Shown here in pieces: positions 309 to 6,558 of a stretch of DNA of 64,000 nucleotides. The first letter of the stretch is position 1, and each line of letters opens with the position of its first letter. The notes beneath the pieces were generated by a model, which ran no database searches, had not been told where the DNA came from, and saw nothing but the letters and a program-made list of their open reading frames with translations. Made by a program: the position numbers and the translations under genes. This DNA is from a virus, in the IMG/VR virus record IMGVR_UViG_3300024264_000013, positions 1 to 64,000 of that record. One strand, given 5' to 3'.

Positions 309-974
309 ATGAATATCCATGAAATAATCTTAGAAGATACACAAATTAATGAAAAACCTACAAGTAGTATTGGCAATTTTGCTAAAAAAGTAGCAAGTAA
401 GGTAACAACTGGTGCTACTAGTGCTAGATTAGGTGGATCAAGTGAAGTTGGATCTAAAGCAAACGCAATTTACAAAGATCTTGCTAGATGGCAAGGTATC
501 AATGGCAAAAACGATAAAAATATGACTTCTGCTGATTTATCAGCGTTTATGAAGCAACATAAATTAAGTGCAGGCGGGATGCAGTTGCCCGATGGTGTAC
601 TTCCAAAGTCAATAATTGATAAAGCATTAAAGAAAGCGGCCGCAAGTGATTTAACTGGTGGCAATGTAGGTACTGACTCAGCACCAAAAGCACAAAGCGG
701 TGGCAGTACTCCATCACAAGGCGGAGTTGCAGGAGCAATGGCGTCAATGGCTAAAGGCGCAGGTGTAAAGGCTCCACAAACAAAAGGGCAACAAGCACAA
801 GCGGCAGGACAACCTACTACAAATAAACAAGCAGGTAGTTCCCCAGCGTCAACATCAGCACCGGGTGCAAAAGTTGCACCACTAAAGAATAAACAAGGTA
901 TTCCACCAGAAGTCCAAACAATGTTAGATAAACTTACACCAACTGAGAAAAAAGCATTGGCGGGAGCAATATAA
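309..974 (+). CDS. Hypothetical Ala/Gly/Lys-rich protein, possible internal head protein
   Basis: ORF 240-974; ATG at 309 has AAGGA SD and follows late-promoter-like ACTAAATA (275-282); N-terminus MNIHEIILE. Confidence 0.6.
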   Translation: MNIHEIILEDTQINEKPTSSIGNFAKKVASKVTTGATSARLGGSSEVGSKANAIYKDLARWQGINGKNDKNMTSADLSAFMKQHKLSAGGMQLPDGVLPKSIIDKALKKAAASDLTGGNVGTDSAPKAQSGGSTPSQGGVAGAMASMAKGAGVKAPQTKGQQAQAAGQPTTNKQAGSSPASTSAPGAKVAPLKNKQGIPPEVQTMLDKLTPTEKKALAGAI

Positions 975-2941
975 TGAAACTACAAGAAGTAACATCATAC
1001 AATTTGAAATCAGCAACAATCTTAAACGAAGGTTGGCAAGATTTAACAGAATCACAAAGACTATATGTAGGCCGTTGGGAAAAAGAACTTTGGCCGTTAC
1101 TAGAAGAATACACACGACTTGCTGAAGCAACACTAACAGCAAATCAAATTCAAGATATTTTTAAAGGTGCTGAAGCACAAGCAAACGCAAGTGGCGATAA
1201 CAGAAACGCACTAGGTAAAGTAGGAGCGGCGGCTGGTGCTGTTGCTAAACTTCCTGTAGACATGGCTAAGAAAGTTGATGCTAAAATTAACGAACTTGGT
1301 GCTATGGCAAAGAATGCAGGACCAGTTAAAAATGCTGATGCAAAGTTTGCACAACTTAAGAAAGACATTACTGCTAAAAACGGTGATAGTAAAATTGTAC
1401 AAGGTATACAAAAAGTAAGTGACTGGGCAAAAGAAAATCCAGGCAAAGCAAGTTTAGCAGTTGGTATTCTAACAACTATTGCGGCATTTGCAGGCGGACC
1501 ATTAGGTGGTGCGGCCGCAGGTTTGATACTGCGTTCAACAAAAGAATTATTACAAGGCGAAGACCTTTCAACAGCAATTGGCAAGTCAGTCAAGACAGCC
1601 GCTTATGGTGCTATTGCAGGTTGGGCATTAAATGGCATTGGAGATTGGTTTGAAGGATTAAGATTTGATTCTGTACCATATGAAAAAGCGCCAGGGTTAG
1701 TTAAATTTGATGTAGGGTTTACTGAAACATTTAAAGCACCCGGCATCACTATGAAAGACACAATCGGCAGTATGGTTATTCCAGAAAGCGAAGTAGGTAG
1801 ATTCACAGATCTTCTTAACACGATGAAAGAAGCAACAGCAGGCGGAGCAACAAGTGATCCTGCGGCTCTAAATGCGTTTGCTAAGATGAGCGAATTTGTA
1901 GATACATTTGATAAGCAATGGTGGCTTGATAGTAATGAAATACAAGATAGCATTGCACAACTGGTTGCGGCTGAGAATGATGCATTTTTACAAAACATGA
2001 CTGCAATCAATAGCGGTATATCAGCATTAGCACAAGGTACAGCATCAGGAAAGATTGATGCTAAAGATGTTAAAGTAGGTGGCGAGCCAGTACAAGGTGA
2101 ATTAGATCTACAAGGTGGCGGCGAGAAAAAAGCAGAGTCATTTGATATGGAAGATCGATTTGAATTATTTTTAATGGAAAAAGATCCTGCACAAGGTGAA
2201 CTTCCTTTAGACAATCCAAATTCAATGGGTGCAAAAGCAAAGCGTGGCTTAGGAAATTTAGCCAAAGGCGCATTAGGCGCAGTTGGTAAAGCGGCCGGCA
2301 AAGTTAAAGCCGGTGCTAAAGAAATGGGAACAGCAGTAAGTGCTAAAAAATTAACCAAGCAATGGAAAGCGGCTGGCGAACCTGCAGATACAGCAAGTAT
2401 TATGAATATTTTACAAGACAACGGGATGACTCCGGACCAAATTGCAACTATTGGACAAGAAGCAAAAGTAGACCTTGGCAAGCCTAGTGCAAAGCCTAAA
2501 GCAGATGCACAAGCAAGTCCAACAGCAGATGCAGGCGCAACAGACGAACCAACAGCAGATGCTCCAACAGCAGATGCTCCAACAGCAGATGCTCCGGCAA
2601 GTGATGCTCCGGCAGGCAATACACCAACACCAAAAGCAGTTGCTAAAGGCGATACTATGAAAGCCAAAGATGGCAAAGAGTATAAATGGATGGGTGCATT
2701 ATGGGTAGACACTGCTACTAATAAACCAATTGGTATTATTCCTTCAATGGCACAAGGCTTACCTAATCCTAAATTAGATCCAATTATTTCAGCGGCTAAG
2801 AAAGATCCAGCACTTGCTAAATTAATTAAATCGCAAGTTGCATCAAAAGGTGTTGAAGCAGGAACATCCGGTGCTCAAAAAGCGGCACAAGCAGGTGTAC
2901 AAGGTACTGAAAAATTAGATGCTAAAGGTGTTACTGCTTAG
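974..2941 (+). CDS. Hypothetical 655-aa protein, possible internal/ejection protein
   Basis: TAATG coupling to upstream gene; hydrophobic Gly/Ala segment LAVGILTTIAAFAGGPLGGAAAGLIL; PTADA repeats. Confidence 0.65.
   Translation: MKLQEVTSYNLKSATILNEGWQDLTESQRLYVGRWEKELWPLLEEYTRLAEATLTANQIQDIFKGAEAQANASGDNRNALGKVGAAAGAVAKLPVDMAKKVDAKINELGAMAKNAGPVKNADAKFAQLKKDITAKNGDSKIVQGIQKVSDWAKENPGKASLAVGILTTIAAFAGGPLGGAAAGLILRSTKELLQGEDLSTAIGKSVKTAAYGAIAGWALNGIGDWFEGLRFDSVPYEKAPGLVKFDVGFTETFKAPGITMKDTIGSMVIPESEVGRFTDLLNTMKEATAGGATSDPAALNAFAKMSEFVDTFDKQWWLDSNEIQDSIAQLVAAENDAFLQNMTAINSGISALAQGTASGKIDAKDVKVGGEPVQGELDLQGGGEKKAESFDMEDRFELFLMEKDPAQGELPLDNPNSMGAKAKRGLGNLAKGALGAVGKAAGKVKAGAKEMGTAVSAKKLTKQWKAAGEPADTASIMNILQDNGMTPDQIATIGQEAKVDLGKPSAKPKADAQASPTADAGATDEPTADAPTADAPTADAPASDAPAGNTPTPKAVAKGDTMKAKDGKEYKWMGALWVDTATNKPIGIIPSMAQGLPNPKLDPIISAAKKDPALAKLIKSQVASKGVEAGTSGAQKAAQAGVQGTEKLDAKGVTA
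2549..2614 (+). repeat. 15-bp tandem repeat (CCAACAGCAGATGCT x3 plus degenerate copies) encoding PTADA
   Basis: Exact copies at 2549, 2564 and 2579; degenerate copies at 2519 and 2594. Confidence 0.9.
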
Positions 2942-3168
2942 AAAAACGGTAAATTTGTTTTCTTTGTAGTTTCCATATTTTCTTTAATTAAATCTGACAT
3001 AAGAGTACGATCCTCAGTACTAAGTTGAAAAGCCTCATTCATAGACATGCTTCCTCGCATATACCACATGAGTTTAAATAATTCAGATTTTAACTGTTTG
3101 CTTTGGCCTTCTAAGTTATCAACTTCTTTTAGGATCTGTTCAACCGGCCAACTGACGATCCTTAGGCG
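2938..3168 (-). CDS. gp51/gpT-like tail assembly chaperone C-terminal ORF, probably reached by -1 frameshift from the gp26-like gene (alternative own ATG at 3069)
   Basis: Open -1 frame of 76 codons: RLRIVSWPVEQILKEVDNLEGQSKQLKSELFKLMWYMRGSMSMNEAFQLSTEDRTLMSDLIKENMETTKKTNLPFF*; not in the ORF track. Confidence 0.65.
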   Translation of the reverse strand, partial: RLRIVSWPVEQILKEVDNLEGQSKQLKSELFKLMWYMRGSMSMNEAFQLSTEDRTLMSDLIKENMETTKKTNLPFF

Positions 3169-3174
3169 AAAAAA
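3131..3174 (-). promoter_or_regulatory. Programmed -1 ribosomal frameshift signal (slippery T TTT TTC, 5-nt spacer, stem-loop)
   Basis: Minus strand CAT TTT TTC GCC TAA; heptamer 3174-3168; AGGATC(3162-3157)...GATCCT(3136-3131) stem with inner TCAGTT/GGTTGA pairing. Confidence 0.7.
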
Positions 3175-4088
3175 TGTGCTTGATCAAATATAATTGGTAC
3201 TTCAAAAGTTTCCGGTGCACCTTCTTTAAGTTGTTCCTCAGTTGAGCGCACTTCCATTGGAGGTACTTCAAATTCTTTCTTTTGTTTTTCGATATGATTA
3301 CTTAAAGATTTAAAAAACGATTTATCAGTATTTTCTAAAAATTCTGTAATATGGCTTCGGTCACTAACAACTTCGTCACCAACTTGAATTGAAACAACAC
3401 TGCTAATAACCATACCCAATGTAATATCTCTAATTTTATTAAATGTAACATTAAATTGTTTTAATTTTTCATCTTCGTCAATTTGATCGTTATTAACAAG
3501 TGCAAAGATTCTTTGTTCTTCAAATGTTTGCATAGACACTTGACTAAACTCTTTATAATTTAATGGACGTATCTTACATGTTAAATCTTTCGCTGTAAAC
3601 GAATCTGAAAATTTAGCATTTTCATAACGCTGTAGTACTTGTCGTAAATCAATAGAATATTCTACTGGTTCTTTTGTATTTGGAGCAGTTGCACTAATAT
3701 TCATATGTTCTCCATATGAAGCAATTCTAATTGCAATCAAACAAGCATCAATATCAAGACTTGGCATACTCCATGCATTTTTAATATTTGGAATACAACT
3801 TTGAATTAAATCAACTGTAGCCTGGCCGCTTAACAAAGCATCCGGAGTTTTTAATGCTAGTTCGTCTTTTGCTGTCATAGGCATAACTGCTAGTTCTCCA
3901 GTTTCAGGCATGTCTAAGGACCCCTCATCATAATATTGACCACCACTAGGTAACTTAATATAAATTTTTGCTTGTCTAAAATGACCTGCAAGTGGGTTTG
4001 CTGTCTTAGGTGCTGTCGCTGGTTGCATTAATGGATTCATTTTATTTCCATTATCTTGTTTAAATTGCTCTGGGTTAAAATCTGCCAT
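3162..4088 (-). CDS. T4 gp26-like baseplate hub assembly / tail assembly chaperone
   Basis: Motifs IYIKLPSGG..Y, PMTAKDE....TPDALL.G, D.DA.LIAIRIASYGE; ends ..FFA; adjacent to tape measure gene. Confidence 0.75.
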   Translation of the reverse strand: MADFNPEQFKQDNGNKMNPLMQPATAPKTANPLAGHFRQAKIYIKLPSGGQYYDEGSLDMPETGELAVMPMTAKDELALKTPDALLSGQATVDLIQSCIPNIKNAWSMPSLDIDACLIAIRIASYGEHMNISATAPNTKEPVEYSIDLRQVLQRYENAKFSDSFTAKDLTCKIRPLNYKEFSQVSMQTFEEQRIFALVNNDQIDEDEKLKQFNVTFNKIRDITLGMVISSVVSIQVGDEVVSDRSHITEFLENTDKSFFKSLSNHIEKQKKEFEVPPMEVRSTEEQLKEGAPETFEVPIIFDQAHFFA

Positions 4089-4161: not shown

Positions 4162-6558
4162 ATGGCAGGACCTGTAAAAGGAACAATAGGGCAAGACGAA
4201 GTTACCCTAAATGACGCGGCTACCGAAACAACGCTGTTAAAAATGCTTGCGGCTATCCAAAAGTCCGGCGGTGGAGGCGGTGGCGCGGCACAAAGTTCCG
4301 AAAAAGAACTAGTCAAAATGGCTAAAGCCACTGGTAAAACTACCAAAGAATTAGAAGATTTTGACGAACAAATAGAAGAAACTAGCAGTGCATTAGCACG
4401 TGGCTTTGGCCAAGTAACGGCTATGTTGTCTGGTTTGGGACATGAATTTTTAGGTGGTGCAACATCTATATCAGACTTTACATCACATATTACAGGAGCA
4501 TTATCAGCAATACCTATAGTTGGCCCATTGGTCGGCGGAGCATTACAATTATTAATTGGTGTTGTAGATTCAAATGTTCAAACATTTAGAGAACTATCAC
4601 AAGTTGGAATTGATTTTGGTGATAGTCTTTTTGGTGCAAAATTAGCGGCAACTCAAGCAGGATTAAGCCTAGAAACTTTTCAAAGTGTAATACAATCTAA
4701 TGCACAGTCTTTAGCATTATTTGGAGGTAGTGCAAGCGAAGGTGCAAAACGTTTTGCTCAAATTAGTGGTCAAATTCAAAAAAACATGGGTCCTACATTT
4801 AGTCGTTTAGGTTTAACTATGGAAGAGACTGCTGAATATACAGCAGACTATTTAGAATTGCAAACAAGTTTAGGTCGTTCACAACGTATGTCTAACAGAG
4901 AATTAACAGCAGGTGTTTCAAGTACTGTAATGGAAATTGATAAACTTGCTAGAGTAACTGGTAAACGTCGTGATCAAATTATGGCTGAAATGAAAGATAA
5001 CATGGCAGACAAACGTCTTAAGTTGATCTTTAATACAATGGACGAAGCGGCACAGAAGAATCTTAATGGTGTTATGACTATGATGGGCGATGCAAGTCCA
5101 GGACTAAAAAATGCAATAGCAGAAATGGTTGCAACAGGTGGTGTTCCGTTAGATGCAATGGGTCAAGATTTAATACGTTTGAATCCAAACTTGGCGGCAA
5201 TGTCAGAAGGATTGAGAGACGGAACTGTAACACAAGACCAGTTTATGGCAGAGATTAGAAAAACTGCTGAAATGGCAGACAACATGTCCGATGCCCAGAA
5301 AAAACAGTATTCAACACTACAAGCAATGGGCAGTGAAGTTGGTAGTGCAGTTGTTGAAATTATTGGATTGAAGAATGCTGGTAAAGGATTAACAGATGTA
5401 CAAAAAGAACAAAAAGCGGCTGAAGAATCAAGAGCAAAAGGGTTAGCAGACTTTGAACGTATACTACAAGACGCAAAAAACAAAATTTACGATGCTTTAA
5501 TTAAATCAGGAGTATTCAAAGTAGTAGAAGATACTTTGGGCACTTTTACTACTTGGTTAGGAAGTCCTGAAGGTATTGCTAAAATACAAAGTTTTGCAAC
5601 AATGCTTTCTGATAAATTTAAAGAACTTGTTGATGCATTTAAAAATGGTAATCTAATGTCTACCATTGGCGGGTATCTAGCAGACGGACTTTCTGGTCTA
5701 GGCGCAATGATAATGAGCAAGATCTTTGGTGGCGGTGAAGAAAAACAAGAAGGCCCACCAGGCGAAAGCGGAGCAAAAGCAAGCGGCGGCGGCGGAGGCA
5801 TGTTCTCAGGTATAGACGGTGCCTTATCAAAACTAGCAGTAATGGTTGCGGCAGGTGGTACAGTTTACCTTGCAATAAAAGGCTTCCAATCATTACTTAG
5901 AGGATTTGCAGGACCACAAGTTATACTAGGTGCGGCAACATTAGCAGGATTGTTAATTGGTACAGGAGCGGCAATTGCCTTAGCAGGTAAAGGTATTGAA
6001 TCGGCTGGTACAGGTATAGAAAAAATGGCGGCTGGCGTTGAAAGAATGGCCGCAGTTAAAGATACAGCAAATTTAAAAGACGTTGCAGTAGCACTAGGTG
6101 ATTTAGGCAGTGCAATGATAGGCTTAGCCGCAGGCGGAGTTCTAGATAGTATTGCTAGTTTCTTTGGTGTAAAATCACCATTTGATAAAATGGTTGACGG
6201 TATTAATAAGTTTGGCGCAATTGATGGCACAGCAGTTGAAAACTTAGTAGCATCGTCAGGCGGTTTGCAAGGCTTAAAATCCTTTGCAGATGACTTAAAT
6301 GCAAAAAATGTTGAAGATTTTGCTGACGCATTAGACAAATTAGTAGATCAAATGAAAGATCTAAATGCTGAATTATCAAAAGATAACAACGGATTCTTTA
6401 AAAAGGGAACTGGTCCAAATGCAGGATCCTTTCTTAGCGGTGGTTCAGGCGGTGAGGGCATAAGTAGTAGTAACATGGAAACATTAATCACACTTATGCG
6501 TGAAAATAATACACTAACAAGACGGATTCTTGAAAAAGATCCAGAGAGCGCATATTAA
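4162..6558 (+). CDS. Tail tape measure protein
   Basis: 798 aa, Ala/Gly/Leu-rich helical composition with hydrophobic segments; N-terminal NDAATETTL motif; between chaperone and portal. Confidence 0.7.
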   Translation: MAGPVKGTIGQDEVTLNDAATETTLLKMLAAIQKSGGGGGGAAQSSEKELVKMAKATGKTTKELEDFDEQIEETSSALARGFGQVTAMLSGLGHEFLGGATSISDFTSHITGALSAIPIVGPLVGGALQLLIGVVDSNVQTFRELSQVGIDFGDSLFGAKLAATQAGLSLETFQSVIQSNAQSLALFGGSASEGAKRFAQISGQIQKNMGPTFSRLGLTMEETAEYTADYLELQTSLGRSQRMSNRELTAGVSSTVMEIDKLARVTGKRRDQIMAEMKDNMADKRLKLIFNTMDEAAQKNLNGVMTMMGDASPGLKNAIAEMVATGGVPLDAMGQDLIRLNPNLAAMSEGLRDGTVTQDQFMAEIRKTAEMADNMSDAQKKQYSTLQAMGSEVGSAVVEIIGLKNAGKGLTDVQKEQKAAEESRAKGLADFERILQDAKNKIYDALIKSGVFKVVEDTLGTFTTWLGSPEGIAKIQSFATMLSDKFKELVDAFKNGNLMSTIGGYLADGLSGLGAMIMSKIFGGGEEKQEGPPGESGAKASGGGGGMFSGIDGALSKLAVMVAAGGTVYLAIKGFQSLLRGFAGPQVILGAATLAGLLIGTGAAIALAGKGIESAGTGIEKMAAGVERMAAVKDTANLKDVAVALGDLGSAMIGLAAGGVLDSIASFFGVKSPFDKMVDGINKFGAIDGTAVENLVASSGGLQGLKSFADDLNAKNVEDFADALDKLVDQMKDLNAELSKDNNGFFKKGTGPNAGSFLSGGSGGEGISSSNMETLITLMRENNTLTRRILEKDPESAY

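Follow-up and report, generated by a model that had tools for sequence, protein, structure and literature searches.

A conserved slip site predicts a short/long gp26/gp51-type protein pair from one gene in jumbo phages

Introduction

The tail assembly chaperone genes of long-tailed phages reportedly share a conserved −1 frameshift, which Xu, Hendrix and Duda are said to have described in 2004. T4 is the textbook exception to this otherwise general feature of their tail-assembly genes: a review describes the frameshift as conserved across the long-tailed phages, 'except T4' (Atkins et al. 2016, PMC5009743). Here we analyse a stretch of 64,000 nucleotides (nt) of viral DNA, hereafter the window, which is the first 64 kb of the 96-kb IMG/VR record IMGVR_UViG_3300024264_000013. 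A gene in this window that, by profile matches, is a member of the T4 gp26 and gp51 family (PF12322) ends in a slippery heptamer and is followed by an open −1 frame. On the comparative evidence presented below, a programmed −1 ribosomal frameshift at this heptamer very likely yields a short/long pair of gp26/gp51-type proteins, of 308 and 383 amino acids (aa).

The roles of gp26 and gp51 have been obscure for decades. In T4 they are listed as hub assembly chaperones of 208 aa and 249 aa, respectively (Leiman et al. 2010, PMC3004832, Table 2), and gp51 is needed for assembly yet absent from the particle (PMC3004832). In T4-like cyanophages, the open reading frame (ORF) that follows gp26 bears the annotation of a small 'gp51'. 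Measuring about 20% of T4 gp51, this cyanophage protein is without the first ~200 residues; the truncation has been recorded and no frameshift was proposed (Sullivan et al. 2010, PMC3037559). We found no published report of a gp26/gp51 frameshift in the literature searched, in which subscription journals are mostly uncovered.

A slippery heptamer at the end of a PF12322 gene

The gene lies on the minus strand (3162..4088) and its short product has 308 aa. This protein matches PF12322 ('T4_baseplate') over residues 46-271 in Pfam (E 5.6e-13; 49.5 bits, with a curated gathering cut-off of 24.5 bits) as well as phrog_150 ('baseplate hub', E 2.2e-16), and these matches place 4088..3162 in the family of T4 gp26 and gp51. 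Direct comparison of the 308-aa protein with T4 gp26 and gp51 by BLASTP gave nothing significant, so the relation to the T4 proteins is visible through profiles alone. When the locus was compared as DNA with the phage collection, no match was found. In a genome-level profile search this gene was the only PF12322 gene of the 96-kb record (4088..3162, 49 bits). The record is estimated to be 27% complete, which implies a jumbo phage genome of roughly 350 kb; the source is an uncultured marine jumbo phage.

The 3′ end of the gene reads CAT (3176-3174) TTT (3173-3171) TTC (3170-3168) GCC TAA (3164-3162), and direct reading shows that it contains the slippery heptamer T_TTT_TTC (3168..3174, minus strand) in X_XXY_YYZ register. 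With UUU in the P site and UUC in the A site, both codons would be able to re-pair with UUU after a −1 slip, and the −1 frame then reads TTT TTT CGC CTA AGG. The −1 extension (2938..3168, minus strand) comprises 76 codons, from CGC (3168-3166) to TTC (2943-2941), and the stop codon TAA (2940-2938). Upstream, a TGA read directly from the sequence (3184..3186, minus strand) stops the −1 frame three codons ahead of the heptamer and therefore excludes initiation upstream in that frame. The first ATG, GTG or TTG of the −1 frame is an ATG 33 codons in (3067..3069, minus strand), and no Shine–Dalgarno sequence of the GGAG type precedes it in the window. The 33 codons ahead of this ATG are conserved at the protein level, from the very first codon. 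The predicted fusion, with the junction ...AHFF followed by RLRIV, would combine 307 residues from the zero frame with 76 from the extension to give 383 aa. Features of a canonical −1 site are thus present: a heptamer in register and an open −1 ORF that is conserved as protein and is without a conserved start. An earlier reading of the window from its letters alone (the original prediction) had located T TTT TTC at 3174-3168, counted 76 open codons with 33 before the ATG and placed the end at 2938; all of these coordinates are correct. Its further claim, that a −1 frameshift produces a ~383-aa fusion beside the 308-aa protein, withstood every comparative test that it had named as a possible refutation.

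The heptamer is conserved as a nucleotide sequence

We compared the locus with two sets of 80 IMG/VR loci, the first obtained with the 308-aa protein as query (97-37% identity) and the second with an alignment of fused forms, in which the gene and the extension are joined in one frame. A single fused protein as locus query retrieved nothing, whereas the alignment-based query did. The cultured jumbo phages compared were 121Q, Phosso, PA5oct, Atu_ph07, RaK2, Munch, Vibrio 2.275.O, Yen9-04, GAP32, SCTP-2 and XacN1.

The heptamer is in register in 85/85 loci (the first set together with 121Q, Phosso, PA5oct and Atu_ph07). In the second set, TTTTTTC occurs in all 74 non-fused loci and in none of the six in-frame fusions. 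Among jumbo-type loci with the extension in another frame, all 126 distinct sequence contexts have the heptamer, as TTTTTTC in 125 and as TTTTTTT in one. The preceding codon has T as its last base in 126/126, whichever of nine residues (N, S, H, T, D, G, Y, A or R) it specifies. The first Phe codon of the heptamer is TTT in every context and the second is TTC in 125/126; Phe codons elsewhere in these genes are TTT and TTC in a ratio of 950 to 325, and a neighbouring conserved Asp codon varies freely (T in 77, C in 45). Because synonymous and wobble positions are fixed at the heptamer, selection here acts on the nucleotides and not on the protein. The slip site called by the original prediction is kept in the homologues, and in none does a stop codon fall between the site and the conserved extension.

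The signal is also found in RaK2, Munch, GAP32, Yen9-04, SCTP-2, Vibrio 2.275.O, Sf-FR1, P-RSM4, Stenotrophomonas Yut2 and Aeromonas phage AS-sw, the last a member of the Straboviridae. Xanthomonas phage XacN1 (L187, near 2290) has the variant T_TTT_TTT, followed by A, at the equivalent position, with an extension carrying W/F-M-R-G in the −1 frame behind it.

The extension is anchored on the slip site

Depending on the clade, the zero-frame stop lies 1, 3, 4, 6, 11 or 12 codons past the heptamer. Counted from the heptamer, the extension is 76 aa long in all complete IMG/VR loci and 70-77 aa long in the cultured phages with TTTTTTC. Given this variable stop distance and constant length, the extension is anchored on the slip site and not on the stop. 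In 32 diverse loci it aligns from the slip site without gaps over 78 columns, of which F1, F2, R3, W37, M39, R40, G41, R56, K71 and K72 are invariant. The first −1 codon encodes Arg in 124 of the 126 contexts, with its third base free, and the positions after it hold conserved hydrophobic or polar residues whose wobble bases are likewise free. These patterns indicate that the extension is under purifying selection, which is seen in hundreds of loci.

The first ATG, GTG or TTG of the −1 ORF is scattered from codon 1 to codon 36 across relatives. In PA5oct (L083, NC_071039, 3334-3558) the whole ORF has no ATG, GTG or TTG and is unannotated. The extension of RaK2 (L181, 2022-2240) is unannotated as well, and in Atu_ph07 the annotation covers just a 40-aa piece. 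For the PF12322 gene itself we note that Yersinia phage fHe-Yen9-04 (L184, 1189-2064) carries the annotation 'Lead, cadmium, zinc and mercury transporting ATPase', which is probably an error triggered by Cys pairs.

No family was found for the extension in Pfam, PHROG or NCBIfam. A search of 1.84 billion representatives with an extension profile returned 499 relatives, of which many form the C-terminal part of proteins of 319-351 aa.

Natural fusions and gene copy number

These natural fusions of 319-351 aa are diverse. In-frame fusion was confirmed at the DNA level in six IMG/VR loci, with CAA TTT AGA, CGT TTT CGT, TAT TTT CGG, ACT TTC CGA and ATA TTC CGG at the junctions and the heptamer in 0/6. 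AlphaFold2 predicts one natural fusion to be a single compact protein (predicted local distance difference test (pLDDT) 89.8; predicted template-modelling score (pTM) 0.81), in which the extension forms the helices of residues 240-315. Used as a Foldseek query, the model of a fused homologue matched 56 predicted structures of viral proteins (E ≤ 0.001) that go under the names baseplate hub subunit or assembly protein; Aeromonas phage 25 gp26 and Acinetobacter ZZ1 gp51 are among them. Searches of the PDB by sequence and with Foldseek found no solved relative.

Gene copy number follows the arrangement of the locus. All 15 frameshift-type genomes have one PF12322 gene; they are the record analysed here, the complete genomes of 121Q, Phosso, PA5oct and Atu_ph07, and ten large contigs from IMG/VR, one of them a genome of 338 kb that has terminal repeats. 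The contigs with an in-frame long form (5/5) carry a second, adjacent, short PF12322 paralogue, whose end corresponds to the FF position (for example, ...MGSNFLPESKNA), and T4 has two PF12322 genes. The pattern, 15 genomes versus 6, is without exception, in lineages that are not independent.

Uncultured phages (IMG/VR, L093-L098; for example, L097:6893-8927) have tandem PF12322 paralogues and no heptamer, the short form standing directly before or after the in-frame long form, and so add a third layout to the frameshift type and the divergent pair of T4.

Correspondence with T4 gp26 and gp51 and with the small gp51 of cyanophages

Both gp26 (residues 1-206 of 208) and gp51 (1-201 of 249) of T4 span PF12322 from end to end, which makes them paralogues; past the family domain, gp51 carries a tail of about 48 further residues. 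The original prediction had called the gene of the window gp26-like. Its membership of PF12322 stands, and the paralogy of gp26 and gp51 means that it is as much gp51-like as gp26-like.

T4 gp26 ends ...KEFFELL, at the FF position. The fused forms are collinear with the gp51 family alignment over their whole length, including the tail (hhalign probability 72%, E 3.4e-5). Among the families that hold the C-terminal domain of gp51 (phrog_634 and, in newer Pfam, PF28602), phrog_634 matched the window-type extension of one member at E 0.052. From this collinearity, the positional equivalence of the extension to the gp51-specific tail is solid, and sequence homology between that tail and the window's own extension is probable. 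In the earlier reading the −1 ORF was 'gp51/gpT-like'; its position is that of the gp51 tail, it does not correspond to a whole gp51, and a likeness to gpG or gpT was not found by sequence or fold.

The cyanophage-type loci have a closely similar layout. In 79/80 of them the small gp51 ORF lies in the −1 frame behind TTTTTTC, as it does in Sf-FR1 and P-RSM4, and in all of these TTTTTTC stands one codon before the gp26 stop. The cyanophage-type ORF begins FFR from the slip site, and the conserved residues FFRIALF... precede its first start codon. The cyanophage-type −1 extension matches the gp51 family at residues 200-250 (92.5%, E 4.9e-7). By sequence, the link to the gp51 tail is thus strong only for the cyanophage type and, at 72% through the natural fusions, moderate for the jumbo type of the window.

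T4 gene 26 itself has no heptamer and ends GAG TTC TTT GAG TTA CTA TAA. T4 gene 25 (L085, 3803) begins at a TAATG overlap, in the −1 frame relative to gene 26, but there is no slippery site, and its product, gp25, is unrelated to the extension. The T4 annotation also includes an internal-start product, 26'.

Counter-evidence and alternative explanations

Several observations weigh against a frameshift that links gp26-type and gp51-type forms. The PF12322 genes of Salmonella phage S118 (Ackermannviridae) and Vibrio phage K483 are without the heptamer, and the −1 frame after each holds a small ORF that has an M-P-W motif and a start codon of its own; these two phages seem to encode the C-terminal domain as a separate small ORF, maybe as a free protein. 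A free C-terminal domain being viable there, covalent fusion is not indispensable in every lineage. In 121Q, Phosso, Atu_ph07 and Sf-FR1 an ATG follows two or three codons past the heptamer and overlaps the stop as TAATG or ATGA, and coupled re-initiation could also yield a free small protein there. The window-type extension alone matches the gp51 family in the right place and weakly (29% probability), and jumbo-type and cyanophage-type extensions are collinear at a non-significant 3.6%.

The search for stimulatory elements bears on the same question. A stem–loop with a 13-bp stem (3162-3150/3145-3131; whole element 3131..3162, minus strand; RNAalifold) begins 5 nt past the heptamer. This hairpin, a feature of the original prediction, is real and is kept in 12/12 members of the window's clade with one two-sided compensatory change (RNAalifold), but it is not conserved outside the clade: it is absent in the largest clade, and other clades have different hairpins or none. 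The window hairpin is no more stable than shuffled sequences (z = +0.9 for 101 nt and −0.8 for 70 nt), no stimulator is common to all clades, and no upstream Shine–Dalgarno-like element was seen. The stem–loop is a possible stimulator of the slip in the window's clade. A low slip rate may need nothing more than the heptamer, as in lambda G/GT.

The −1 ORF could instead be a separate gene, whose free small 'gp51-like' protein acts unfused with the 308-aa protein and is started at ATG 3069 (43 aa), at a non-canonical start or by termination–reinitiation near the upstream stop. In cyanophage records the ORF is entered as a 'gp51' of its own (Sullivan et al. 2010, PMC3037559), and the overlapping ATG codons of some relatives and the heptamer-free S118 and K483, with their own starts, agree with such an arrangement. 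However, the window offers no ATG, GTG or TTG for 33 protein-conserved codons and no Shine–Dalgarno sequence ahead of ATG 3069, and the PA5oct ORF has no start codon anywhere. A separate gene also leaves unexplained the invariant heptamer, the wobble T of the preceding codon and the loss of the heptamer exactly in the fusions. We consider this explanation improbable.

In another scenario, RNA polymerase slips on the six T residues and adds one U to some mRNAs, from which the 383-aa protein would be translated. The conserved element is indeed a homopolymer run (T6, or T7 in XacN1), and transcriptional slippage serves similar purposes in bacteria (PMC5009743). Against this, the run is followed by C in 125 of the 126 contexts and its phase is always X_XXY_YYZ, which fits tandem tRNA re-pairing; slippage by the polymerase needs no fixed phase, although two conserved Phe codons could impose one. 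A run of six residues is also short, as bacterial RNA polymerases usually need runs of about 9. Transcriptional slippage is therefore very unlikely in our estimation. That there is no recoding at all, with TTTTTTC kept for a C-terminal Phe-Phe and the downstream ORF unrelated or decaying, gains something from the aromatic pairs that end both the short form (...HFFA) and the extension (...LPFF), but is scarcely credible, because protein selection cannot fix TTT-then-TTC or the wobble T of a variable preceding codon and because purifying selection acts on the extension in hundreds of loci, with in-frame fusions of it in others.

Neighbouring genes and the tape measure

The original prediction placed the gene beside that of the tape measure. 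On its 3′ side, a convergent ORF of 655 aa (974-2941, plus strand), which belongs to no family, has a stop codon that overlaps that of the extension. Its product is rich in Ala, Gly and Lys, with one hydrophobic segment and a PTADA-type repeat. As a tape measure this ORF is unsupported, as it has no family match and is restricted to the window's clade (L001-L018).

A divergent, conserved neighbour is the better candidate. It encodes a virion protein of 798 aa (4162..6558, plus strand) and adjoins the portal gene, an arrangement also found in 121Q, PA5oct and RaK2. The counterpart in 121Q and PA5oct is annotated 'structural protein, ESI-MS/MS', and the RaK2 depositor's note on the counterpart there reads 'similar to ... 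tail tape measure protein'. The 798-aa protein is rich in Ala and Gly with hydrophobic Gly-rich segments, a make-up common in tape measures, and has no profile match to tape-measure families. A T4 gp29-type tape measure was not detectable in four complete jumbo-phage relatives. It is plausible that the 798-aa protein is the tape measure of these jumbo phages.

Discussion

The sequences show the signal, how it is conserved, the collinear alignments and the pattern of gene copies; from these we infer the slip, its efficiency and a role for its products in assembly as follows. Most ribosomes would stop at TAA (3164-3162) and release the 308-aa protein. A minority would slip back one base, with tRNA-Phe on UUU in the P site and on UUC in the A site of T_TTT_TTC, continue through CGC CTA AGG and onwards and so append 76 residues. 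The resulting protein of 383 aa would share its N-terminal 307 residues with the short form, and in members of the window's clade the stem–loop 5 nt downstream may make slipping more frequent. Together, the short and long proteins would form a one-gene equivalent of the paralogous hub-assembly chaperones of T4, with the short form ending where gp26 ends and the long form carrying its helical C-terminal domain in the position of the gp51 tail, and the equivalence of this short/long pair to gp26/gp51 is well supported. By analogy with T4, a set ratio of both forms would be required for the central hub of the baseplate to assemble, possibly around the tape measure, and neither form would be kept in the virion.

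A broader proposal can be put forward tentatively, as a possibility on which we would not yet rely. The gp26/gp51 family might supply T4-like and jumbo myoviruses with the tail-assembly-chaperone system that they seem to lack. The T_TTT_TTC frameshift would be its ancestral means of fixing a short:long ratio, kept in jumbo phages, cyanophages and some Straboviridae, with duplication having replaced the frameshift in T4 and in some uncultured lineages. If this is true, the 'except T4' exception would be removed and a cyanophage gp51 without its first 200 residues would be explained.

Should the slip itself be real, hundreds of jumbo-phage and cyanophage genomes are misannotated, with the extension missing, truncated or entered as a separate 'gp51'. 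The cyanophage gp51 of 20% length would be accounted for, and gp26 and gp51 of T4 would be recognisable as a duplicated short/long pair. The locus would then offer a natural experiment on frameshifting and gene duplication as exchangeable routes to two isoforms, and the idea is directly testable in cultured phages (PA5oct, RaK2, 121Q and S-PM2-type cyanophages).

The comparison with lambda G/GT rests on several shared features. In both, a −1 slip on an X_XXY_YYZ heptamer, here a predicted one, falls towards the 3′ end of a gene for an assembly chaperone; the short product and its C-terminally extended counterpart have the same N-terminus, here as judged from sequence signals only; and the second ORF is independent of a start codon, with a signal that is conserved despite low sequence similarity. 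There are also differences. The gene of the window is not between tube and tape-measure genes in one operon, being divergent from the 798-aa candidate and convergent with the 655-aa ORF, and the T4 homologues act in hub assembly and not in tube polymerisation. No tail-chaperone match was found in Pfam, PHROG or NCBIfam, and Foldseek against the PDB gave nothing, searches that a distant relation might escape; VIA-align returned generic helical hairpins only (Z ≤ 8.1), with no likeness to tail chaperones. We thus take the likeness to G/GT as an analogy, one of logic, with no likeness found in sequence or fold. The suggestion in the original prediction that gp26/gp51-like pairs may be G/GT equivalents holds for this short/long logic. 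The present signal sits in the superfamily of T4, the very exception named in the review.

T4 itself is close in the proteins and differs in the genes. The short form of the window ends at FF as gp26 does, and the helical tail of the long form is collinear with gp51 200-249. T4 makes its two forms from two divergently transcribed paralogous genes, whereas frameshift-type genomes would use one gene for both, so that the N-terminal 307 residues are identical in the two. The window protein has 308 aa versus 208 aa for T4 gp26, and it has lost the CxxC pairs found in T4 and in fused forms. In layout, a close parallel is the 'small gp51' of T4-like cyanophages and marine vibriophages, which directly follows a gp26-like gene in the −1 frame, as in the window. 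The cyanophage extension is 56-64 aa long and clearly matches the gp51 tail, whereas that of the window, with 76 aa and a weak match, has in addition an extra helix and a W-[YFH]-M-R-G motif.

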